Positions 1 through 15,334 of a DNA stretch of 22,248 bases are shown here, one piece after another. Origin of the DNA: a virus (Duplodnaviria; Heunggongvirae; Uroviricota; Caudoviricetes). Made by a program: the position numbers and the translations under genes. The notes under the pieces are model-generated. The model saw only the letters and a list, made by a program, of their open reading frames with translations. It was not told where the DNA came from and did no database searches. The stretch lies in IMG/VR virus record IMGVR_UViG_2778261418_000019, positions 1 through 22,248 of that record; one strand, 5' to 3'. Each line of letters begins with the position of its first letter. The first letter of the stretch is position 1.

Positions 1-300
1 GTGCAATATATTAAACTAAGTGAATATAAATTATTTCATCGTTATGATTATGAAGGCGATGTATGTATTAATGTGTTTTCGAATATGGTGATTTATTTTG
101 ATGGCTATGACCGTGTTGTACTTGATCGTAGTACAAATACCTTCACGTATCAAAATATTGAAACTGCAACCCAACAAGAAATAGAAGATTACACTACCAT
201 CAAAGAAGAATTGATCTTCCAGTACAGCACACTGATTGACGTCGAGAAATACATCTCAATTCAAGAAGAAATGAAGAAACTAAACGATATGTACGAATAA
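1..300 (+). CDS. hypothetical protein (99 aa; may be 5'-truncated at window edge, GTG at position 1)
   Basis: ORF track; open frame ends TAA 298-300 and is followed by a hairpin at 303-325. No recognisable motif. Confidence 0.4.
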   Translation: MQYIKLSEYKLFHRYDYEGDVCINVFSNMVIYFDGYDRVVLDRSTNTFTYQNIETATQQEIEDYTTIKEELIFQYSTLIDVEKYISIQEEMKKLNDMYE

Positions 301-302
301 AA

Positions 303-325
303 AAGCCCACTTAATGTGGGCTTCA
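303..325. terminator. bidirectional intrinsic terminator-like hairpin (AGCCCAC-TTAA-GTGGGCT)
   Basis: Stem GCCCAC/GTGGGC with a 4-nt loop. An A-run lies on the 5' side on the + strand, so the minus-strand transcript sees a T-run (TTTTTTAT) after the hairpin; the + strand side is T-rich (TTCATTGTTTCATT). Confidence 0.55.
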
Positions 326-333
326 TTGTTTCA

Positions 334-516
334 TTATACGGCTTTTTCTACATGGTACGCGGCGAAGTGAAAGGAAGTAAATGTACCCGACGCTGCGTTA
401 TTCTTATGTACGGTACGGTATTTGTTATCCTCACCTTTTACTACTGCCCCCATATATACATCGTTAACCATGATATCAGTGATGTTACCGCGTTCTAAGT
501 AAGTTACTGTATTCAT
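334..516 (-). CDS. hypothetical small protein (about 60 aa from ATG at 516-514; ORF track extends to a TTG at 549)
   Basis: Only plausible minus-strand gene in the window. ATG at 516 is preceded on the minus strand by AAGGGA about 7 nt upstream, and the ORF ends at the bidirectional hairpin. The overlapping + strand ORF 316-498 starts inside the hairpin and lacks an RBS. Confidence 0.35.
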   Translation of the reverse strand: MNTVTYLERGNITDIMVNDVYMGAVVKGEDNKYRTVHKNNAASGTFTSFHFAAYHVEKAV

Positions 517-556
517 TATATATCCCTTCGTAGTAGTGTTTTGCTTCAATAAAGAC

Positions 557-584
557 AGTATACACTACCGTTAGTTACTATCAA
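557..584 (-). promoter_or_regulatory. candidate sigma70-like promoter for the minus-strand gene (TTGATA-N16-TATACT on minus strand)
   Basis: Read by eye on the reverse complement: -35 at 579-584, -10 at 557-562, 16-nt spacer. Confidence 0.3.
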
Positions 585-620
585 GTGTTTTCTACTAATA
601 AAATATTTTAGTAACTAGTG

Positions 621-649
621 TTGACGTTAGATACTAATGATCCTAGTAT
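621..649 (+). promoter_or_regulatory. candidate sigma70-like promoter (TTGACG-N17-TAGTAT) for the + strand small genes, overlapped by inverted repeats
   Basis: TTGACG 621-626, 17-nt spacer, TAGTAT 644-649. Inverted repeat GATACTA (630-636) / TAGTATC (644-650) overlaps the spacer and -10; a 9-bp inverted repeat TAGTTACTA (572-580) / TAGTAACTA (609-617) lies just upstream. Confidence 0.3.
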
Positions 650-678
650 CAGTGGTGTCAATACAACGAGGACACAAC

Positions 679-765
679 ATGACGTTCACTATCACTAAAG
701 AGCATGTACTATTTGTAGTCATCATAACCTTGTTACTAATCGTAGGGAGTATCGAAAATGTCTAA
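679..765 (+). CDS. putative 28-aa hydrophobic peptide (MTFTITKEHVLFVVIITLLLIVGSIENV)
   Basis: ATG 679 with GAGGA 6 nt upstream; single predicted membrane-spanning stretch; overlaps the next ORF by 8 nt. Below the ORF-track length cut-off. Confidence 0.25.
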   Translation: MTFTITKEHVLFVVIITLLLIVGSIENV

Positions 766-928
766 GGGTGTATCTACTGATTTGATCATTAAGGCACATG
801 ATTTAGGATTCAAGATTAACGAGATTGATAATCGTGTAACGGGAATGTTTCATATAGTAATTAGTTCCCGTCATAATGAGCGTGAATTATTCAGTATGTT
901 TCTTATGTCTGGTGGCTTGTTCCATTAG
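758..928 (+). CDS. hypothetical small protein (56 aa)
   Basis: ATG 758 preceded by GGGAG at 745-749; open to TAG 926-928. Not in the ORF track (under 60 aa). Confidence 0.4.
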   Translation: MSKGVSTDLIIKAHDLGFKINEIDNRVTGMFHIVISSRHNERELFSMFLMSGGLFH

Positions 929-1055
929 GAAAAGAACATCAATTTACCTAAGAGTGTAACCGATAAGATCACTATTGCCCGATTCGATGGTGAACGTGCT
1001 TTCACTTCATTACTAGAAGTAGTATCCGAAGAAATTACTAACGTACATTAATCAA

Positions 1056-1094
1056 TTAACACTACTAGTACATTTTCGGTACTAGTAGTGTTAA
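1056..1094. repeat. perfect 16-bp inverted repeat (TTAACACTACTAGTAC / GTACTAGTAGTGTTAA) with a 7-nt loop
   Basis: Directly verified: 1056-1071 is the exact reverse complement of 1079-1094; loop ATTTTCG. No T-run follows on either strand. Confidence 0.7.
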
Positions 1095-1106
1095 TATGGA
1101 CACTCT

Positions 1107-1208
1107 ATGAAAAAATTAACCTTTACTTACCTTGCGGCTGCAAATTTCTTTTTCTTCATTGCTGGGATCTTTACATGCGTATTAGTTGTATTGCTGGTGG
1201 ACTTATAA
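1107..1208 (+). CDS. putative 33-aa hydrophobic peptide (MKKLTFTYLAAANFFFFIAGIFTCVLVVLLVDL)
   Basis: ATG 1107 about 13 nt after the 16-bp hairpin; KK followed by an uninterrupted hydrophobic stretch; no clear SD. Alternative frame to the ORF-track ORF 1088-1372. Confidence 0.2.
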   Translation: MKKLTFTYLAAANFFFFIAGIFTCVLVVLLVDL

Positions 1209-1252
1209 CCGAAGTTTTCGACGATCACGACCGAAAGGTAGGGGCGGTCACT

Positions 1253-1372
1253 ATGTCTAAGCATCCCCTACACATCAATAAGCCTTTTAGTGATGGTAAG
1301 ACGTGGCACACTACCTATAACGAAGCACTATTGAACTTACTAACTAGAAAACGCGTGAACATTAAGCTATGA
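1253..1372 (+). CDS. hypothetical small protein (39 aa from ATG 1253; the same frame is open back to GTG 1088 and ATG 1175)
   Basis: ORF-track frame 1088-1372. The GTG start lies inside the hairpin arm, so an internal ATG is more plausible. Its stop overlaps the next start (ATGA at 1369-1372), suggesting translational coupling. Confidence 0.25.
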   Translation: MSKHPLHINKPFSDGKTWHTTYNEALLNLLTRKRVNIKL

Positions 1373-1590
1373 ATGATCTTAATGATCTAAACGTGCTCTA
1401 TATAGATACAGTACGAAAACTTACCGAAGAAGATCTACTACGTGATTTTGGTCTTACAAGTGAGATGATAAACACTTTGAAGGAGATCCCACTTGCAAAT
1501 ATAGGTAAACTAACCGAATGTACTCAGTTACTGTTAAAATCAAACGAGGCTGTACTATGGGAAGCATTAAAAGCATTACCGCAAAGATGA
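1369..1590 (+). CDS. hypothetical protein (73 aa)
   Basis: ORF track; ATG overlaps the upstream stop; no recognisable motif. Confidence 0.5.
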   Translation: MNDLNDLNVLYIDTVRKLTEEDLLRDFGLTSEMINTLKEIPLANIGKLTECTQLLLKSNEAVLWEALKALPQR

Positions 1591-2240
1591 TCAGTACGAT
1601 TCTTAATGATGATTTTCATGTAGGTATGTTGACTGCCGACGCAACAGGCCGCAATGCACTGGCAAACGTCAACGAAGAAGATATAGATACACTTATTCAA
1701 CGCCTGGAAGAAGTGAAAGACTATGTTAGTACACTTCGTACCGAGCGTATAAACGAAGCTAAGAAACTATTAGAATCACTTGTACAAGAGTCTGGTAGCT
1801 TCTCTAGTGTAGAGGAACTGCTTTCTACACTTGCCGTATCTTCTCCTGCTTCCATACCACAAAAAGCATCGAAGCCAAACGGCAATAAAATATTCGAAGT
1901 AGTCATAGTTGATAGCAAGAAGGACGAAAGAAGATCCTATAATGTAATCAATAAGAAGTTACCAGCGGCATTACTCAAGGATGAAGTATACATTCAGTTG
2001 GTTAAGAAGAATCCCGAACTATCAGACGTTGACGAGTTTTTACGGGCGTATAGTGAGGACTATCGCAAAAAATACCCGCTTAATGCGAAGTGGAACGGTC
2101 ATGAGTTCCATCTAAACCAGAAAGGGAAGATGAACGCGAAAGCACAGGAATACTACGCCGAGTACAAGAAGCAGTACCCCAAACAGGCCGACGAGCAAGA
2201 CTTCAAAGAGCTTGTTACTAAAGCCTATAAGGTAGCATAA
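1557..2240 (+). CDS. hypothetical protein, about 227 aa, with predicted coiled-coil N-terminal half and basic Lys/Tyr-rich C-terminus
   Basis: ORF track frame 1518-2240. ATG 1557 has GAGG 7 nt upstream, whereas 1518 is deep inside the preceding ORF. Followed by an 11-bp-stem hairpin. Confidence 0.55.
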   Translation: MGSIKSITAKMISTILNDDFHVGMLTADATGRNALANVNEEDIDTLIQRLEEVKDYVSTLRTERINEAKKLLESLVQESGSFSSVEELLSTLAVSSPASIPQKASKPNGNKIFEVVIVDSKKDERRSYNVINKKLPAALLKDEVYIQLVKKNPELSDVDEFLRAYSEDYRKKYPLNAKWNGHEFHLNQKGKMNAKAQEYYAEYKKQYPKQADEQDFKELVTKAYKVA

Positions 2241-2248
2241 GAAGAATA

Positions 2249-2279
2249 ATAGCTACTACACAGATAAAGTAGTAGCTAT
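2249..2279 (+). terminator. stem-loop (ATAGCTACTAC / GTAGTAGCTAT, 9-nt loop), possible terminator with weak U-tract
   Basis: Perfect 11-bp inverted repeat directly after the stop at 2240. Confidence 0.35.
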
Positions 2280-2348
2280 TACTAAATATCATAGCTATAA
2301 TAATTCACATCAAGCATCACTCCACACAATCACTAAAAGGAATTACTA

Positions 2349-2729
2349 ATGAAGCATCTCTTTGCCCTAGCTGTACTTGCTACTGCTACAATCACTACTG
2401 GCTGCACTACTACAATGCCTGCATTTATGAATGAAGCTGTAGTAGGTGATATTAACGGTCGTACACTAGTATTATTCCCCGTAAATGGTGGCAAAGAGTA
2501 TCGCCCACAATTCAGTAGTGATTGTCAGCCAATGCTATTAGGTGAAGAACGCCCATCTACTGGTAACTGTATTATTGCCGCCGCCCGCCTTACAAACATT
2601 CATAGCTACACCGAACATAAAGCCCACGGCCCCCACAAAAACACCACTAAGATAGTTGATCGTTCAAATAATTACGGTACAGAATTTGAGTTATCGAAAC
2701 CAACTAATTATATAGGCGATAATCTGTGA
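2349..2729 (+). CDS. predicted secreted protein or lipoprotein (126 aa; signal peptide ending ...ATITTG-C)
   Basis: AAAGGAA RBS 8 nt upstream; hydrophobic N-terminus MKHLFALAVLATATITTGC with Cys right after the h-region (relaxed lipobox); five Cys in the mature part. Confidence 0.6.
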   Translation: MKHLFALAVLATATITTGCTTTMPAFMNEAVVGDINGRTLVLFPVNGGKEYRPQFSSDCQPMLLGEERPSTGNCIIAAARLTNIHSYTEHKAHGPHKNTTKIVDRSNNYGTEFELSKPTNYIGDNL

Positions 2730-2818
2730 TGAAGAAAACAATATTTGCCGTACTTTTAGTTATGGGGACTGCATATTACTATGATATAATAAAATATATT
2801 AATCCCACTTATTAAATT
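2729..2818 (+). CDS. putative 29-aa membrane peptide (MKKTIFAVLLVMGTAYYYDIIKYINPTY)
   Basis: ATG overlaps the upstream stop (TGATG at 2727-2731); KK then hydrophobic stretch. Below the ORF-track cut-off. Confidence 0.25.
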
Positions 2819-2908
2819 GCAGTCGCCGTAATCAAAAACACTGTCATTATCTGGCATCAATAATGCCATTGATTCTGATAAAGTAGATAATCCCGAATGG
2901 ATGAATTT

Positions 2909-3289
2909 ATGAAAAAGATTGTACTGTCTGCATTACTGTTAGTAGCCCCTTCGGTACTGGCAGTAAATGTAATACTCCCTGATGATGGTCTGTATCGTTG
3001 CGGTGTTGAATCGTGGGAACAGGTAGGAAAGCGAGTAGTAAAGACTGGTTATTATGGTATGACTGGTTATGTGAGTATTGATAACCGTGCTGTTAGTGTG
3101 AAGTTTAGGGATGTGAATATTTCATTCAGCCCTGTTTCAAAACTTAAAAGCGGTCGCCTGATGGCCTATGCCGTAGATACTGACCAGTACGATATTATTA
3201 TTAGTGCAATCAATGGTAAAACACAGTATATGGTCAGCAATGAGAATAATCCCGTATTTTTGAACTTCTCCAATTGTATTATTGAATAA
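2909..3289 (+). CDS. secreted protein, paralog 1 (signal peptide MKKIVLSALLLVAPSVLA; ORF-track start is 2897)
   Basis: Signal peptide nearly identical to that of ORF 3299-3685; conserved LPxxGLYxC after the cleavage site and NC(I/V) near the C-terminus. Confidence 0.6.
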   Translation: MKKIVLSALLLVAPSVLAVNVILPDDGLYRCGVESWEQVGKRVVKTGYYGMTGYVSIDNRAVSVKFRDVNISFSPVSKLKSGRLMAYAVDTDQYDIIISAINGKTQYMVSNENNPVFLNFSNCIIE

Positions 3290-3298
3290 GGAATAGAA

Positions 3299-3685
3299 AT
3301 GAAAAAGGTTATCGTATCTGCATTACTGTTAGTAGCTCCTTCGGTACTGGCTAACACTCACTCTCTACCAGAGCAGGGATTGTATCAATGTGATGTGAAA
3401 GTAGTTGAAATGCTGGGTGATACTCCAGTAGAAAAATCTTCTTATTCTGGTGCAGGTCACGCTAAAGTTAATAGTGATGGTTTTATCCTTAACTTCGGTG
3501 CAATGACTCACGCCACCGGACCAATAGAATCTAATGATTCAATGACAATGGCTTATGATAATGATAGGCAGCGATACTTCCTTGCAACAATGGGTAGTAA
3601 AGAGCAAAACGATATTACTTTTATCTTCTCATTGAGATCTGATACTCGTAATTACTACTTTCAAAACTGCGTTAAAATAAAATAA
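3299..3685 (+). CDS. secreted protein, paralog 2 (signal peptide MKKVIVSALLLVAPSVLA)
   Basis: AAGGAA RBS 6 nt upstream; tandem paralog of 2909-3289; mature domain diverged. Confidence 0.6.
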   Translation: MKKVIVSALLLVAPSVLANTHSLPEQGLYQCDVKVVEMLGDTPVEKSSYSGAGHAKVNSDGFILNFGAMTHATGPIESNDSMTMAYDNDRQRYFLATMGSKEQNDITFIFSLRSDTRNYYFQNCVKIK

Positions 3686-3696
3686 GGGATATATAT

Positions 3697-3906
3697 ATGT
3701 CAGAGAAACTAATTAAAGCAATCCGTAATATTACGGAATATAATATGAGTATTGAGCGTATCATTGTTAGTACCGAAGACCAGCAACACTATTATAGTAT
3801 TAATCCTTATAAGGAAACTGTAATAAAGGTAGCAGACCAATACGGCAAACCAATTGAAGGAGAAGTAGAAATACCACAAATACCGCCATTATTCGATACT
3901 AACTAA
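3697..3906 (+). CDS. hypothetical protein (69 aa)
   Basis: AAGGGA RBS 8 nt upstream; followed by a strong terminator. Confidence 0.5.
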   Translation: MSEKLIKAIRNITEYNMSIERIIVSTEDQQHYYSINPYKETVIKVADQYGKPIEGEVEIPQIPPLFDTN

Positions 3907-3912
3907 TAATAT

Positions 3913-3943
3913 AGCCCACTAATAAAAGTGGGCTTTTTTATTC
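3913..3943 (+). terminator. rho-independent terminator (AGCCCACT-AATAAA-AGTGGGCT + TTTTTTATT)
   Basis: Perfect 8-bp stem, 6-nt loop, then T6. Stem core resembles the hairpin at 303-325. Confidence 0.7.
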
Positions 3944-3984
3944 CTGCCTAAATACTCCTATACATGCAATAGGAGTATCCCACC

Positions 3985-4371
3985 ATGAATACAATCTACC
4001 TACACTTCCCTGATGGAACGTATAAGGCCATAGAAAGCACCACAGGCCGACAGGAATCAGGATACATACCATCACGCAAGGATAAGCTAATAACCGCTCA
4101 TATCATCACACAGGACGGTTACGAGCTATTCATAGATACCTATACACTAACGCTTAAGTATAAATACATTACATTAAACTACTCACGCTTCACCATAGGC
4201 CGTACTAATTACCCTATCAATGCACTAGATACATTCAGCGGTAGTGAGCTACCACACTTAACCCGACTAAGGGAACTACGCGACGAGATCTTACAGTACC
4301 GTACCGTAGATGGTCTGCCTATCTCTTATCGTTGTGATGTAATCGTTAGTAATATGGTGATACTCAAGTAG
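3985..4371 (+). CDS. hypothetical protein (128 aa)
   Basis: ORF track; AGGAG about 11 nt upstream; no recognisable motif. Confidence 0.5.
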   Translation: MNTIYLHFPDGTYKAIESTTGRQESGYIPSRKDKLITAHIITQDGYELFIDTYTLTLKYKYITLNYSRFTIGRTNYPINALDTFSGSELPHLTRLRELRDEILQYRTVDGLPISYRCDVIVSNMVILK

Positions 4372-4684
4372 ATTGCATAAGAAGTGCATAACGGCATGGG
4401 TGGCATGATTCTGCACTGATAGGTGATACCTATCAACATTATGTACAATTTGTGCGATCTTATCGAAAAAAGATGAAATTAATTAAAATAAAGGTTGACA
4501 AATAAAAATATAATAGGTTCTCCCAAAAAACGGCAAATAGAGCGAGTTTTCGCCGCGAATTGCAAATAAAATTCGTGGAAAATTTTACAAAGAACAAACA
4601 AAACTATAGATAAAATCTATCAGTACAGAAATAGATAGGAAATATCAATCAATGGAAAAGAATAAAAAGTGAATAGGAAATCAC
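4372..4684. other. 313-bp AT-rich non-coding region upstream of the small terminase gene; candidate packaging (cos/pac) and late regulatory region
   Basis: No ORF of meaningful length. Contains an isolated GC-rich core CGCCGCG (4551-4557), an 8-bp hairpin TGATAGGT-GAT-ACCTATCA (4417-4435), a palindrome ATAGAT-AAA-ATCTAT (4606-4620) and a further ATAGATA (4631-4637). Confidence 0.3.
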
Positions 4685-5254
4685 ATGGCAAAAGTAAAAG
4701 ATGATGGAACAAGATATTCCTGGCAAGAAATTGCCGACCGATTCGGTGTGGAACATTCCACAGTATCCCGTATCTGGTCTGGTAAAGGACTGGATATTAC
4801 ATGGCCTAAGAAATTAGTAGACGACTGGTTACTTGCAAACGTAATCGAACCCCTACGCAATGGTGATACTAAAGGTCAAATACAAAAAGCAAACCTACGC
4901 AAACTAGAAGCAGAAGCAGACCTAAAAGAATTAGAACTACGTCAACAATCTGGTGAACTAATTCCGGTAGCAGTAGTACAGCAAACATTATCACAATATT
5001 TCTATCAACTAAGACAGGTACTAAGAAGTATTCCAGCGTCGAGTTATGTAGAACTATTTGAATCACAGGACGCCTTAGAATTAAAAATTAAATTACAGGA
5101 CAAGATAGACCGCCAGCTAGAAGAAATCGGCGGGTATGAATATGAGGGAACATATGAAGACCAACTACCAGAAGATGATGAAGATCCTAACGAGGGCGGC
5201 GAAGTCGATCCTACCTCCGAAGAAACAACTACCCGCAGAGTGGGTAGAGAGTAA
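4685..5254 (+). CDS. terminase small subunit (Nu1-like: N-terminal HTH, coiled-coil middle, acidic tail)
   Basis: AGGAAA RBS; N-terminus WQEIADRFGVEHSTVSRIWSGKG resembles the lambda Nu1 helix-turn-helix; sits immediately upstream of the large terminase. Confidence 0.65.
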   Translation: MAKVKDDGTRYSWQEIADRFGVEHSTVSRIWSGKGLDITWPKKLVDDWLLANVIEPLRNGDTKGQIQKANLRKLEAEADLKELELRQQSGELIPVAVVQQTLSQYFYQLRQVLRSIPASSYVELFESQDALELKIKLQDKIDRQLEEIGGYEYEGTYEDQLPEDDEDPNEGGEVDPTSEETTTRRVGRE

Positions 5255-7049
5255 CCTAGTCTTCCCCGATGGCGAACTACAAGGGCAACGCGTCAAATTA
5301 TTTGCCTTTCAACATAAGCCCATCAACGATATAGTTAATCCACGTGTACGTAAAGTGGTACTAATGAGTAGTGCTCAACTTCTCAAAACAACGGTACTAC
5401 AGAATAGTATGTACTACTTCCTAGCCAATGATCCGAGTAACATGATCTTCGGTGGTGCTACTGGCGGTACTACAAGTAAATTCCGTACTGGTAAATGGCA
5501 GGCAGTCATAGAAGCATGTCCGGTGCTGAAAAATCTAGTTAGTAATAAGAATGATAAGAACTATACGAACAATGACAAGACACAACAAAATTTAGATGGT
5601 ACGTTTACCTACTTCCTGTCATTGGGTAGTAGTGCTTCCCTTCGTGGCCTTAGTTCGCCTCGCGTATTCCTAGACGAGATATCAAACGTAGACGCAGACG
5701 GGGATGAAGGCAACCCATTGAAGCTAGCCGAGCAGAGGACGAAAGCATTCTCTAACCCCCTTATTATGTGTTGTTCTACACCACTAGATGAACACGACCT
5801 GATTACTCAACAGTACGAGCAAAGTAATAAACAGAAGTTTTATGTACCGTGTCCACACTGTAACCACTCTCACGAAATGGTATTCGAGAATGTTAAATTT
5901 GAATGGAAGATCATAGAAGGTGGTCGCCGTCGTATCCCCGATGCAGATACTGCAAGATTAGAATGCCCAAAATGTAATAATGTAATCACCGAAGCAGAAC
6001 GTGTACGAATGATTCGTAGGGGTGAATGGGTAGTAACAGCACCAGAAGTAACCGATATAATGGGATATCACATATCTAGACTCTATTCCCCCATCAACTC
6101 CATAAAATCAATAGTAGCAGACTTTGCCGAAGCACATTATACCTTTGACCTTGCATCATTCTATAACAACGTCTTAGGACTACCATATATTGATAAAGAG
6201 AATACCGACCATGATTTGGTACTGTTAGAGAACCTACGCGATAGTGAAATAGATATTAATACCGTGCCAGATGATTGTCAGGGAATCGTATTTGGCGTAG
6301 ACCAACAGTTAGACCGTTTGGAAGTTACTACACTAGGAGTAAGTGAAAAGAATCTATATGTACTAGATCATAGAAGCATTTACGCAATTGACTGTACTAA
6401 GATCGAAGCACCAGCATGGAATAAGCTAACGGCCTTTGCAAATACACCATTTAAAACTAAATCGGGTAAACCATTGAAGGTACTGGCAGGATTCGTAGAT
6501 AGTTCGAACGGCAACGCAACTAGTACCGTATATCGCTATTGCAGTAGTTCTACTATCTTTAAACCAATCAAAGGTGGTACGTCTAACTCTAACCCACTAT
6601 TCAAAGATAGTACCGCTGGTGGTCACTCCCTGATTAACCTTAACGTAAACTTAGGCAAATCAAACGTCCGTCAATTACTCAACCGTGCTGTATCCGATAG
6701 TGAAAATAGTAAGGAAGTACAAATACATTTCAGTCATTCAGTACCGGATGATTACTTTATTCAGCTTACTTCCGAGAAGCGAGTAATAAAGGCTGGTGCC
6801 TGGGTATGGGTGAAGAAAGTTAGTTCGGCGAGAAATGAAACCCTTGATTGTCTTAATTACTCGCTTATATGTTTCCAGTGGTATCTATCCAAGTTAGGTA
6901 GTCAACCATTCCGACAACTAAGGGAATACAACGCTAAACAAAAAGAGAAAGCAGGACTAAATAAAGAAGTAAATACAGAAGAAGCACCAACTAAGCCAAC
7001 TCCAAAACGAGTAATAAGGCCGCGTAAAGGTGGTGGATTCTTTAAATAA
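5136..7049 (+). CDS. terminase large subunit (GpA-like, with Cys-x2-Cys ... Cys-x2-Cys zinc-finger-like motif)
   Basis: 637-aa ORF; N-terminal LPAEWVESNLVFPDGELQG resembles the lambda gpA N-terminus; CPHCNHSH...CPKCNN motif. Exact start uncertain: several in-frame ATGs at 5136-5178, all inside the 3' end of the small terminase gene. Confidence 0.8.
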   Translation: MNMREHMKTNYQKMMKILTRAAKSILPPKKQLPAEWVESNLVFPDGELQGQRVKLFAFQHKPINDIVNPRVRKVVLMSSAQLLKTTVLQNSMYYFLANDPSNMIFGGATGGTTSKFRTGKWQAVIEACPVLKNLVSNKNDKNYTNNDKTQQNLDGTFTYFLSLGSSASLRGLSSPRVFLDEISNVDADGDEGNPLKLAEQRTKAFSNPLIMCCSTPLDEHDLITQQYEQSNKQKFYVPCPHCNHSHEMVFENVKFEWKIIEGGRRRIPDADTARLECPKCNNVITEAERVRMIRRGEWVVTAPEVTDIMGYHISRLYSPINSIKSIVADFAEAHYTFDLASFYNNVLGLPYIDKENTDHDLVLLENLRDSEIDINTVPDDCQGIVFGVDQQLDRLEVTTLGVSEKNLYVLDHRSIYAIDCTKIEAPAWNKLTAFANTPFKTKSGKPLKVLAGFVDSSNGNATSTVYRYCSSSTIFKPIKGGTSNSNPLFKDSTAGGHSLINLNVNLGKSNVRQLLNRAVSDSENSKEVQIHFSHSVPDDYFIQLTSEKRVIKAGAWVWVKKVSSARNETLDCLNYSLICFQWYLSKLGSQPFRQLREYNAKQKEKAGLNKEVNTEEAPTKPTPKRVIRPRKGGGFFK

Positions 7050-7551: not shown

Positions 7552-9047
7552 TGTTCGGATGGAATAAAAAGAAAGTAGAAGAACCTAAACAAAAAGTTTT
7601 AGTACAGAAGCCAGTGAAGCTAATGAAGAATAACCCAATGAAACGAGCAATGACTTCCCTGAATTTGGGATCATCTAGCCCTGTTATCTCATTTGGCTTC
7701 ACTGGTGGTAATCAGGCTGGCAATATTAACGCCATCATTAACCGTACACTACCCGTAATGGTAGCCGTTAGTCGTGAACTATCAATCAAGAACGGTATTG
7801 TAAAAAAATATGTTAGTACGAATAGTGCAGGTGTAACGGGTGCAGATGGCCTATATATTCGCCCTTGTACGCATAGCTCCGACGACGAACAGGTTAACCA
7901 GTCAATCGATAAACAGATTGAAGATGCGTTTTACACGTGGGCCGAAGATCCTAAAGCGTTTTCCCGCTGCGGTACTCTAGATATCAGTACCTTCCAACGT
8001 CTGGTAGAACGTACTCGATCAGTAGATGGTGATTGTTTCATTCGCGTTCACAGTAAGCCAGGAGAGCTACCACAGATTGAGATTATCGATTCTATGCGTA
8101 TCTCGACCTATGAGAACCAATTACTACCAAGTGGTAACTATATTAGTAATGGTATTGAATTTGATATTAATACTAACCGACCTGTAGCTTATTGGGTAAC
8201 ACGTTATAACCCCATCATGTACAACTATATGATTGGTGAGCGTGAACGAGTACCAGCCGACGAGATCCTACACCTATTTCAGCAGGACTATCCAACACAG
8301 CAACGCGGTATTCCAGATGTGCATTCCGGTACTGAAAAGTTAAAAGAGTTAGAGGAATTTATGTCGGCGGCAATTACTTCCCGAAAGGTTGCAGCGTCCG
8401 CAATGGCCTTTATTACTAACCCTGATAGTGATGACGTACAGCTACTGACTGATGATAGTGTATCGTACTATGATCAGGACTATCTAAATCCGGCTGCAAT
8501 CGTAGAACTACAGGCAGGTCAGGATATTAAAACAGTAAACCCAACACAGACTACCGATGGTATACAAGAGTTTATTGATAACCAAATGATGATGATTGCA
8601 ATGGGATTAGATATTACAAAACAATCTCTAACTTCTGATACTAGTAATGCTTCATTCAGTGCTGCAAAGTTAACTGATAAATTACAGCAATCAACATTTA
8701 AAAGCCGTACTAATGCTTTAATTGTATCCGTACTGAAACCTCTTTATATTGCATGGCTAAAATCTGCAATGCTAAATAATAGTACATTAAGCAATTTAAA
8801 TTTTAGTGATTTTAATAAATTAACTCATGCACAATATGTACAGACGCGTCAAATCTCCCTAGATCCATATAAAGACCTTCAAACCGAAGTATTAGCAATT
8901 GATAACGGTTTAAAGAGTAAGGCAATGGTAATTTCGGAGATGGGATACGATCCGGTTATTGTCATGGAAGAAATCAACAAGGAAAATAAAGAAAATGGAA
9001 TTGAACAAGAACCAGACGAGGGCGATCAATCTAACGCAGATCAATAA
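7551..9047 (+). CDS. portal protein
   Basis: 498 aa, immediately after the terminase genes and before the protease/capsid ORF; AGGAG 9 nt upstream; ATG overlaps the upstream stop (TAATG). Confidence 0.75.
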   Translation: MFGWNKKKVEEPKQKVLVQKPVKLMKNNPMKRAMTSLNLGSSSPVISFGFTGGNQAGNINAIINRTLPVMVAVSRELSIKNGIVKKYVSTNSAGVTGADGLYIRPCTHSSDDEQVNQSIDKQIEDAFYTWAEDPKAFSRCGTLDISTFQRLVERTRSVDGDCFIRVHSKPGELPQIEIIDSMRISTYENQLLPSGNYISNGIEFDINTNRPVAYWVTRYNPIMYNYMIGERERVPADEILHLFQQDYPTQQRGIPDVHSGTEKLKELEEFMSAAITSRKVAASAMAFITNPDSDDVQLLTDDSVSYYDQDYLNPAAIVELQAGQDIKTVNPTQTTDGIQEFIDNQMMMIAMGLDITKQSLTSDTSNASFSAAKLTDKLQQSTFKSRTNALIVSVLKPLYIAWLKSAMLNNSTLSNLNFSDFNKLTHAQYVQTRQISLDPYKDLQTEVLAIDNGLKSKAMVISEMGYDPVIVMEEINKENKENGIEQEPDEGDQSNADQ

Positions 9048-10857
9048 TGCAATTGATGAAAACGATAGAACTGTAGAACTCTCTTTTGCCTCCGAAATTC
9101 CAGTAGTACGCGATATTAAAGGGACTCTCTATAATGAGATCCTTTTATGCAGTCCTGAAAACGTAGATTTAAGCCGTCTAAATGACGGTGCACCTGTACT
9201 AGTAGAACATGATGCAATGCGTCAAGTTGGTATAGTTGAAAATGCTCGCGTAGATATGGATAAAGTATGTCGTGCTACTGTACGTTTTAGTGCTTTGGGT
9301 ACTGCAAATACTATCTTCGGAATGATCGTAGAAGGTATTCGCCCTAAAGTATCAGTAGGTTATAACATCCTAGATTACTATCTAGATGGTAATGATCTAA
9401 TCGTTTCCAAATGGCAACCATACGAAGTATCAAGCGTATCCACTCCCGCAGATAATAGCGTAGGTGTAGGAAGATCACTAAATAGTAATGATGAAATTAC
9501 TTTAGAGGATCAACCCCAAATGGAACCAGAACAAAAAGAAGAACTAGTACAGGAAGTAAAAATTATTGAAAAAGCACCACAAGAAGAAGTGCAATCAGAA
9601 GTAGTTGAAGAATCCGTAGTAGTCGAAAGTGAAGAATCAGTAGAAGTAGTAGAAGTTGAAGTAATCGAGGAAGTACAAGAAGATGTACAACCGGAATTAG
9701 TAGAAGAACGTTCTATTGCAGTAACTGATATTCAAGAAAGTATAAATAAAGAAGTAGAAGCAAATCGTATTCGCGAACTTCAATCTATTTCTTCGGTACT
9801 AGGTGTTAGTACCGAAGAAGCAATTAAAAACGGTGTAAGCGTAGAAGACTTTAAACGCTCACTACTAAATAAAGATAACAAATCAATTGATAAGGAAATC
9901 AAACAAATGGATAAAAAATCTCTAATCGCCGAAGGTCTACGTAGTCTAAAAGGCGAAGCAAACGAACTAGCAACCTTCGAAAAAGGTACACGCGGTTATA
10001 ATGCAGATCTTAATGCTATGGTACGTTCTACTGCCGATACCACTTCTACCGTCACTGCCGCAGGTCTTGTAAAAGAAGAATTAGCAGATGCCTATATTCG
10101 CCAACTACTTGCACGTACCGTACTAGGTGAACTACCAGTTACCGTCTTTGGTGGTCTTGCTGGTCGTGGTAATTTCTCTATCCCACGTGCAAAAGGTATG
10201 AACCCAGTAGCACGTTTCTATGGTGAAGATGAAGCAGTATCCGATGGCTTCGAAACCTTCGATAAGATCACTCTAAAGCCTCGCATGTTCGCAGCAGGTA
10301 TCAAGATCACTAAAGCAATGCTACTAAGCAACGCAGCTACCGAACGTTATGTAACTGATGAGCTACTACGCCAATGTTCTAACGGTCTAGAATCAGCAGT
10401 ATTTACACAAATCGCTAATACCGTTCCAGTACAGGAAACCGCAGCAGTAGGTACAGTAACCGAAGCAGACGTACAGAAAGCAATTGAGGCACTAGGTGTA
10501 GCAAACGTTGATATCAACCGTTGTGTTGCAATCGTCCACCCTTCTATGCTCGCTAAACTACGTCAGTATGCAATTTTGGGTAACACCAGTGCAGTAAGTG
10601 CTGTAGCAGGCCATCGCTATGATATGTGGTTGTGTGACGAAGTACGCGTAATTGAATCTACTTTCGTAGCAGCAGATGCAATTCTAATTGGTGACTTCTC
10701 CGAACTAATCTTTACTAACTGGAACGAAGGCCAAGAGCTGGATTTCGACGATACTACCTACCGTGCAGCACAAACTATCGCAATCCGTAGCTTCCAGTAC
10801 CTTGATGTAGCTATTGCACACGAAGAATCATTCGTACAAATCAAACTAAAAGCATAA
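8959..10857 (+). CDS. prohead protease - acidic scaffold-like linker - major capsid protein (HK97-type) encoded as one ORF
   Basis: N-terminal third matches the HK97 prohead protease pattern (RTVELSFASE..., VLVEHD); aa about 190-250 is an E/V-rich acidic low-complexity stretch; the C-terminal roughly 380 aa looks like an HK97-fold capsid protein. Internal in-frame ATG at 9520 with AGAGGA upstream. The 5' end overlaps the portal gene (alternative ATG at 8995). Confidence 0.7.
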   Translation: MSWKKSTRKIKKMELNKNQTRAINLTQINNAIDENDRTVELSFASEIPVVRDIKGTLYNEILLCSPENVDLSRLNDGAPVLVEHDAMRQVGIVENARVDMDKVCRATVRFSALGTANTIFGMIVEGIRPKVSVGYNILDYYLDGNDLIVSKWQPYEVSSVSTPADNSVGVGRSLNSNDEITLEDQPQMEPEQKEELVQEVKIIEKAPQEEVQSEVVEESVVVESEESVEVVEVEVIEEVQEDVQPELVEERSIAVTDIQESINKEVEANRIRELQSISSVLGVSTEEAIKNGVSVEDFKRSLLNKDNKSIDKEIKQMDKKSLIAEGLRSLKGEANELATFEKGTRGYNADLNAMVRSTADTTSTVTAAGLVKEELADAYIRQLLARTVLGELPVTVFGGLAGRGNFSIPRAKGMNPVARFYGEDEAVSDGFETFDKITLKPRMFAAGIKITKAMLLSNAATERYVTDELLRQCSNGLESAVFTQIANTVPVQETAAVGTVTEADVQKAIEALGVANVDINRCVAIVHPSMLAKLRQYAILGNTSAVSAVAGHRYDMWLCDEVRVIESTFVAADAILIGDFSELIFTNWNEGQELDFDDTTYRAAQTIAIRSFQYLDVAIAHEESFVQIKLKA

Positions 10858-11599: not shown

Positions 11600-15334
<3,735 letters not shown>

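Follow-up and report, generated by a model that had tools for sequence, protein, structure and literature searches.

A perfect intergenic stem-loop and a probable overlooked small membrane-protein gene in an Escherichia prophage operon

The DNA analysed here, a stretch of 22,248 nucleotides called the window throughout, covers positions 1 to 22,248 of the IMG/VR virus record IMGVR_UViG_2778261418_000019. It belongs to a small temperate siphovirus-like prophage of a poorly characterised Escherichia group. Between a 97-amino-acid gene and a 65-amino-acid gene it carries a perfect 17-bp stem-loop, HP1, closely followed by a 33-codon open reading frame, ORF33. In the reading we favour, to which we give about even odds, HP1 would be a transcribed intercistronic stem-loop with an RNA-level role in a polycistronic prophage mRNA. 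ORF33 is probably a genuine, unannotated gene for a small single-pass membrane protein, a judgement based on how its sequence has been conserved; its product would be translated and inserted into the membrane.

Structure and setting of the stem-loop

HP1 spans positions 1055-1095 of the + strand, its arms at 1055-1071 (5' ATTAACACTACTAGTAC) and 1079-1095 (3' GTACTAGTAGTGTTAAT) enclosing the 7-nt loop ATTTTCG at 1072-1078. Both the window sequence and a repeat finder give arms that are 100% complementary, so that the stem is one pair longer than the perfect 16-bp hairpin with a 7-nt loop that a preliminary description had noticed in the letters alone. The same description pointed to ACTAGT occurring twice, and the hexamer is present once per arm, at 1064-1069 and 1081-1086. 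Its claim of a very stable structure, for which RNA folding had been proposed as a check, was borne out: RNAfold assigns the segment 1046-1112 an energy of -24.4 kcal/mol (z = -6.7), HP1 is the dominant structure, and none of 200 shuffles is as stable. Five of the 17 pairs are G-C, in surroundings with a local GC content of 0.38. Across 100 dinucleotide-preserving shuffles of the whole window, with loops of 3-10 nt, the longest perfect stem reached 7-11 bp, against the 17 bp observed. HP1 thus lies far beyond chance, a real structure and not a random one. Nor is it an artefact of assembly, since many independent assemblies carry it, two complete E. coli chromosomes among them.

The preliminary description was also right that this is not a simple terminator. 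Past the stem both strands lack a T-run, the sequence continuing as ATATGGACACTC (+) and TGATTAATGTAC (-), and both hallmarks of an intrinsic terminator, the G+C-rich stem and the U-tract, are wanting. A terminator scan of the window does not list HP1; the T-tailed terminators it finds lie only at 303-323, with the T-run on the - strand, and at 3913-3934. Additionally, the covariance models of Rfam 15 give no match at 1040-1210 with E <= 1.

Every gene of the HP1 region lies on the + strand. The 97-amino-acid gene (758-1051) ends with a TAA stop at 1049-1051, 3 nt before HP1. Upstream, a consensus match to a promoter, TTGACG-17-TAGTAT at 621-649 (+), would drive an operon running from about 650 to the terminator at 3913-3934, with HP1 inside it.

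The same operon holds a second hairpin, HP2 (2247-2281, + strand), whose perfect 13-bp stem (2247-2259 paired with 2269-2281) and 9-nt loop lie 6 nt past the stop codon at 2238-2240 of a gene of about 227 amino acids that ends at 2240. The two hairpins share the core CTACTA..TAGTAG. The pattern CTACTA-N(1-25)-TAGTAG occurs exactly twice in the window, where 0.09 occurrences are expected; the rest of the prophage has one further match, a chance one inside the recombinase gene and without a stem. Related prophages fall into clades labelled A to D, the window being in clade A, and the HP2 stem, (A)ATAGCTACTAC / GTAGTAGCTAT(T), is kept in clades A, B and C and in part of D (L015), with loop and flanks diverged. 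It is kept as well in an Enterobacter hormaechei prophage whose 97-amino-acid protein is only 45% identical. Homologous HP2 stems measure 10-13 bp and always stand 4-8 nt past a stop codon, followed by a TATAAT-like hexamer (TATAAT at 2293-2298 in the window). No small open reading frame lies behind HP2, and the gene content 3' of it varies by lineage.

On the favoured reading, HP1 and HP2 would be related stem-loops placed 3-8 nt past stop codons, at junctions between conserved and variable gene blocks. HP1 would act as + strand RNA, either as a barrier to 3'-to-5' exonucleases or as a processing boundary that would set the relative abundance of the mRNA segments on its two sides. It may also be a partial attenuator, and it may insulate translation of the 97-amino-acid gene from initiation at ORF33. 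ORF33 itself would be a separate, lineage-specific accessory gene with its own weak Shine-Dalgarno (SD) sequence, GGA, and its translation would cross the start of the 65-amino-acid gene. The proposed role draws on analogy with well-studied bacterial and phage mRNAs, in which such hairpins keep 3' exonucleases off the upstream mRNA, set processed ends, and can partly attenuate read-through and slow ribosomes at a nearby stop codon. An intercistronic RNA stem-loop is preferred to an ORF33-specific leader because of the position on the operon's coding strand and the distance of 3-8 nt past stop codons. It is preferred also because stem length varies between lineages, loops change or flip, G.U pairs form only on the + strand, and a U-tract is lacking.

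A related account, that HP1 is an RNase III site at which the polycistronic mRNA is cut between cistrons, as in T7 early mRNA or at lambda sib, is very doubtful. The setting suits it, for HP1 offers 17 bp of perfect double-stranded RNA between cistrons of a coliphage operon. However, typical RNase III substrates span about two turns of double-stranded RNA, roughly 20 bp or more, and often include an internal loop; HP1 has no internal-loop architecture, and the shortness of the homologous stems (12 bp for HP1 in locus L020, 10-13 bp for HP2) counts weakly against such cutting.

Variation of the stem-loop between prophage lineages

Within clade A, HP1 takes four forms. The window has the perfect 17-bp stem (V1), and L003 and L011 differ by an apical G to C change (V2). 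In L001 the loop reads CGGAAAT and the 3' arm ATACTGGTAGTGTTAAT (V3), while L012 and nine others share this form with one basal T.T mismatch added (V4). Apart from transitions, the loop of V3 and V4 reads as the V1 loop in reverse complement, although the prophages are 96-97% identical, and in BLAST the best alignment of the window HP1 with the L012 prophage is on the opposite strand. On this comparison of sequences, the apex of HP1 has flipped, a signature of replication template switching or recombination within the palindrome. V3 and V4 still fold, at -20.4 and -16.5 kcal/mol over a 93-nt segment (L012: -16.3 over 67 nt), and a single arm transition in them leaves a U.G pair in the + strand RNA. 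In the commonest clade A variant, one ACTAGT has mutated to ACTGG.

Further away, HP1 is retained in shorter form in clade B1 and lost in clade B2. L020 (B1) carries AGCTACTAGTAC / CCACAA / GTGCTAGTAGCT, a 12-bp stem of -22.4 kcal/mol (z = -5.9) in which, relative to the window, two pairs have changed on both sides (A-T to G-C, C-G to A-T) and one is U.G on the + strand. Both wobbles, that of L020 and that of the commonest clade A variant, pair on + strand RNA only. The L020 stem also has AGCTACTA/TAGTAGCT in common with HP2, which suggests that HP1 derived from HP2. In L065 (B2) the 5' arm is kept and the 3' arm has decayed, leaving -5.8 kcal/mol (z = 0.14), yet ORF33, its SD sequence and the neighbouring genes are intact.

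Still other lineages have neither element. In clade C (L017, L018, L054 and the Enterobacter locus L066) HP1 and ORF33 are absent and the upstream gene overlaps the 65-amino-acid gene, and the same direct overlap is found in the more distant L024 and L027-L030. Because the flanking genes overlap directly wherever HP1 and ORF33 are missing in this way, HP1 together with the first two-thirds of ORF33 is read from these alignments as a lineage-specific insert of about 120 nt. Where they overlap, the flanking genes are probably translationally coupled.

Several of these observations weigh against an RNA-level role. The covariation count for HP1 (86% of cells paired, two covarying pairs, six distinct sequences) is not statistically compelling, as two doubly changed pairs were matched in 96 of 500 shuffles. 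HP1 is dispensable in at least one natural genome, judging by L065, which keeps ORF33 without it; the two are therefore no obligate unit. Moreover, the loop flip shows that template switching acts on HP1, and template switching during replication can create and repair perfect stems and produce compensatory multi-base changes and inverted loops without selection (PMC8794818). It follows that double substitutions in such a stem are no proof of selection, a caution for covariation analysis in general.

These same facts make a neutral palindrome a serious rival, although an unlikely one. HP1 would then be a scar of the insertion of the ORF33 segment, perhaps a copy of HP2, kept perfect by template switching and regulating nothing; its restriction to insert-bearing lineages, its inverted loop among close relatives and its loss in L065 all fit. 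Three points argue for the favoured RNA stem-loop instead. The stem has outlasted the divergence of clades A and B, over which synonymous sites of the flanking genes are near saturation (proportion of synonymous differences, pS, 0.65-0.78), both tolerated mismatches form G.U pairs on the transcribed strand, and the HP2 stem sequence has been kept over a much deeper divergence.

The variants also bear on the idea, raised in the preliminary description, of a protein-binding palindrome, that is, an operator acting as DNA. The dyad is perfect, and the core of the 5' arm, CTACTAGTAC, is invariant in all six variants. However, the spacing of the conserved half-sites, expected to be fixed in an operator, ranges from 10 to 15 nt (15 nt in HP1, 10-14 nt in HP2 variants), the commonest variant has ACTGG in place of one ACTAGT, close relatives carry the loop inverted, HP2 lacks CTAG, and the only promoter-like site is about 400 bp further upstream. 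An operator is highly improbable on this evidence. A likeness of the ACTAGT half-site to the host trp (TrpR) operator was considered and rejected on the variable spacing, the loss of ACTAGT in the commonest variant and its lack in HP2.

Wider searches place both hairpins within this prophage group. HP1 and HP2 occur in only two of 5,426 complete E. coli genomes, those with this prophage clade, and nowhere outside the prophage. The exact HP1 pattern has no match in IMG/VR. The degenerate pattern CTACTAGTAC-N4-10-RTRCTRGTAG gives 22 IMG/VR matches in unrelated contexts, coding Ser/Thr repeats included, which by a rough estimate is about the chance level, and HP1 as a widespread mobile element was rejected on that count. 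A bolder proposal, quite improbable in our estimate, is that HP1 and HP2 belong to a sequence-recognised family of phage stem-loops that mark module junctions, serve as regulatory sites and as hotspots of recombination or template switching, and capture small genes. If it were true, HP1 would be a copy of an ancient HP2 that came with the insertion of ORF33 between formerly overlapping genes.

The series of hairpin forms (perfect, apically mismatched, flipped, G.U-containing, 12-bp and lost) amounts to a natural experiment on a post-stop stem-loop without a U-tract. The loop flip between near-identical prophages offers a clean example, from a bacterial virus, of template-switch mutation on a hairpin.

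ORF33, its neighbours and the prophage

ORF33 occupies 1107-1208 on the + strand. Its ATG stands 11 nt past the 17-bp stem, and is the 13th base after position 1094, in keeping with the 33-codon frame that the preliminary description placed 13 nt beyond the hairpin. It starts 56 nt after the stop of the 97-amino-acid gene and overlaps the 65-amino-acid gene by 34 nt in another frame. The predicted product, MKKLTFTYLAAANFFFFIAGIFTCVLVVLLVDL, opens with KK at its N-terminus and continues in about 28 hydrophobic residues. A homologous 33-codon frame lies at the same position in the two diverged clade B genomes, as MIRKFKFTAVQAAFAFFSLAGVVLCVLIALLVA in L020 and MISKFKFTLVQAASTFFLMAGVVLCVLIALLAA in L065, so that the frame is open over 33 codons in three lineages. 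An SD-like GGA (1098-1100 in the window) sits at a conserved distance from the start; in clade B it reads AGGA, 7 nt upstream.

The suspicion that this small hydrophobic frame might matter has gained ground, for synonymous change exceeds nonsynonymous change (pN) in the diverged lineage. By the Nei-Gojobori method, over the roughly 22 codons outside the overlap with the 65-amino-acid gene, the ORF33 frame gives pS 0.38 and pN 0.15 between L020 and L065, and pS 0.78 and pN 0.39 between the window and L020. The other two frames across ORF33 contain stops and have pN at least equal to pS. Three considerations pull the other way: about 22 non-overlapping codons are a small sample for a signal of selection, hydrophobic open reading frames arise readily in T-rich DNA, and no gene caller, the Prokaryotic Genome Annotation Pipeline (PGAP) included, calls ORF33. 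It has no exact match among called genes, no family in NCBIfam or Pfam (E <= 1) or PHROGs (E <= 0.1), and no homologue among 1.84 billion representative proteins.

HP1 might instead be a leader that controls translation of ORF33, stacking coaxially on a helix over the SD sequence and AUG so as to damp a potentially harmful peptide or couple it to upstream translation. A weak 5-bp mini-helix at 1096-1108 (+) is predicted to abut HP1 and to pair the SD-like GGA as well as the AU that opens the ORF33 start codon. A counterpart is predicted just 3' of HP1 in L020, where the AUG has an unpaired probability of 0.02-0.04; the innermost pair of this helix, G-C in L020, is U-A in L065, where the helix is longer and HP1 is lost. 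Such a leader remains distinctly unlikely: the helices are weak, at about -1 to -4 kcal/mol, the AUG bases of the window are still 32-81% unpaired, and HP2 has no open reading frame behind it. A switch in which the freed 3' arm of HP1 pairs with the ORF33 ribosome-binding site (-7.2 kcal/mol in the window) was likewise tried and rejected, as this pairing is not conserved in L020.

The layout of a type I toxin-antitoxin locus, which the preliminary description had seen in a stable 5' hairpin before a small membrane peptide, is not supported. ORF33 would be the toxin, and an antisense RNA the antitoxin. The peptide is indeed small and hydrophobic with a basic N-terminus, and structured RNA precedes it; of four testable defining features, however, a small (under 60 amino acids) hydrophobic peptide frame is the only one present, its membrane activity putative, and the other three fail. 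A consensus scan, in itself a weak test, finds no - strand promoter-like or terminator-like signal in 900-1500 that could belong to an antisense gene, and no + strand promoter-like site in 878-1106. Nor is the locus autonomous, ORF33 being embedded in an operon and overlapping the next gene by its 34 nt. NCBIfam, Pfam, PHROGs and the representative proteins hold no toxin-family match, HP2 has no small frame behind it, and L065 keeps ORF33 after losing HP1. Among the explanations considered, this one is the least probable.

The gene that ORF33 runs into is well conserved. The 65-amino-acid gene (1175-1372, + strand, ATG at 1175) is called by gene callers, is 75-98% identical in 12 protein clusters and has a ratio of nonsynonymous to synonymous rates (dN/dS) of 0.11-0.15. 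A confident AlphaFold model of its product (pLDDT 89.5) has three beta strands and one helix, with no significant fold or sequence match in the PDB. A mechanically derived 94-amino-acid frame at 1088-1372, whose GTG start lies inside the 3' arm of HP1, was rejected: only the part from the ATG at 1175 is conserved, and upstream of it the frame is unconserved, and closed or startless in L013 and L020. In clade D (L013 3390-3476; also L014, L015, L019, L022, L023, L026 and L031) neither HP1 nor a conserved ORF33 is present. An unrelated 28-amino-acid transmembrane peptide, MIFNDIPTLLDLIFAVIITPVILLLVWL, stands there with an AAGGAG SD sequence and ends 69 nt before the 65-amino-acid gene; it is ATGA-coupled to the upstream gene, shortened to 76 amino acids in these genomes. 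It makes a second small membrane peptide, independent of ORF33, in the interval from the upstream gene to the 65-amino-acid gene.

The operon also begins with a small membrane peptide. Its first cistron is a 28-amino-acid transmembrane leader frame at 679-765 (+), MTFTITKEHVLFVVIITLLLIVGSIENV, with the SD sequence GAGGA at 668-672; it overlaps the start of the next gene by 8 nt. At 24-28 amino acids it is kept in every lineage covering the site, distant ones and Enterobacter included, while it is missing both from the PGAP annotation and from the gene calls of the collection. The operon holds, besides ORF33, this second small transmembrane frame of 24-28 codons. Translation of ORF33, should it occur, would mean a further conserved small membrane protein overlooked by every gene caller. 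Small membrane peptides of prophages often serve superinfection exclusion, lysis timing or host manipulation.

Other features of the region can be noted. A small divergent gene (334-549, - strand) precedes the operon. In the window, the 97-amino-acid gene has an in-frame amber TAG at 926-928, which results in a called 56-amino-acid product and an untranslated remainder; the amber allele is also present in L002-L011 and widespread in public assemblies, and L001, L012 and L055-L063 have TGG (Trp) there. E. coli 02B21CPO003B (NZ_CM151386.1) combines the amber allele with the V2 hairpin, whereas WGI31CT (NZ_CM135810.1) has an intact 97-amino-acid gene and the flipped-loop V4 form. The window contains no tRNA gene, and therefore no phage-borne amber suppressor. 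Next to the 65-amino-acid gene lies a 73-amino-acid gene (1369-1590, +), whose product faintly resembles FlhD (E = 0.027 with Pfam PF05247, 0.013 in NCBIfam), scoring far short of the curated cut-offs; the neighbouring genes otherwise have no family match, and PDB sequence searches with their products returned nothing. Beyond HP2 come variable small genes (2349-3906), the operon-ending terminator, a 128-amino-acid gene (3985-4371) and, from 4685, the terminase genes (+).

As a whole, the window is 99.9% identical to a prophage of about 33 kb and 38% GC inserted in yegD of E. coli NZ_CM151386.1, with a serine recombinase at one end (L064 14418-47641, about 1811417-1844640 of NZ_CM151386.1). Relatives occur in nine of the 5,426 complete E. 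coli genomes and in many Logan assemblies. DNA searches of GenBank phages found no relative, near (with 1-6000) or distant (with 600-2400), the best TerL match is 37% identical, and two scans of genome contigs gave no match. Genes for TerS, TerL, portal, a capsid-protease fusion, tail-fibre proteins and a tape-measure protein lie on the + strand of the window. The capsid gene (8959-10857) apparently carries a fused, protease-like N-terminal portion (PHROG 'major head and protease protein'), and within the gene a perfect 13-bp hairpin at 9789-9819, TTCTTCGGTACTA / GGTGT / TAGTACCGAAGAA, exceeds all stems in 100 shuffles. A 1244-amino-acid tail-fibre protein (11600-15334) matches a major-tail-protein family at its N-terminus. 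Non-structural genes of the prophage are nearly all hypothetical, and none is recognisable as a gene for a repressor, for replication or for antitermination; the far end carries a GIY-YIG nuclease and a - strand glycoside hydrolase. The attP site is divided between the two ends of the prophage in yegD, cos would be expected immediately ahead of TerS, and among candidate replication origins no iterons were found.

Comparison with known systems

For HP1 as an RNA element, the closest functional analogues appear to be intercistronic stabiliser or attenuator hairpins. Stem-loops of the repetitive extragenic palindromic (REP) type sit after stop codons, and 3' ends are trimmed back to them. HP1 is alike in being stable, free of a U-tract, near a stop codon and inside an operon, and, as with other stabilising stem-loops, two copies stand in one operon. 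It differs from the REP type in its AT-rich and perfect stem and in not being a dispersed host repeat. Compared with the RNase III sites of T7 early mRNA and lambda sib, HP1 shares the intercistronic position in a coliphage mRNA but is shorter (12-17 bp), perfect and without an internal loop. ORF33 resembles the toxins of type I systems such as Hok/Sok, Ldr, Ibs and TisB in its length of about 30 amino acids, its single predicted transmembrane helix and the structured RNA upstream; it departs from them in lacking antisense-gene signals, an autonomous locus and any family match.

The gene junction and its insertion polymorphism recall two other systems. Promoter-early stem-loop (PeSL) cassettes number about 50 per genome in T4-type phages (PMC2839356, PMC4122927). 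Like them, HP1 and HP2 are related stem-loops just past stop codons that border variable ORFan genes, and the lineage-specific indel of HP1 and ORF33 begins exactly at the stem-loop. Unlike them, HP1 has no sigma-70 promoter-like site, HP2 is followed by TATAAT without an acceptable -35, and only two copies exist in the whole prophage, a small temperate siphovirus-like host element. The analysis gave no sign that these two copies recombine with each other. The stem-loop position thus agrees with the PeSL pattern, whereas the promoter and the many copies are wanting, and HP1 and HP2 are not members of the family because they lack a promoter and number only two. Should the improbable idea of a recognised stem-loop family hold, it would extend PeSL-like gene acquisition beyond T4-type phages to small temperate prophages of Enterobacteriaceae.

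Phage morons, as described by Hendrix and Juhala, are accessory genes inserted between conserved genes. ORF33 is similar as a small accessory gene present in some lineages only, between two genes that otherwise overlap. It differs in having no promoter or downstream terminator of its own, in the stem-loop upstream of it and in its overlap with the downstream neighbour. By analogy, PeSL cassettes and morons are the nearest counterparts of the junction and its indel, as stabiliser and attenuator hairpins are of HP1 itself. Collectively, the locus comprises an ordinary-looking intergenic stem-loop and an overlooked small membrane-protein gene, the latter as probable as stated above; both are of known kinds, and they leave current concepts unchanged.

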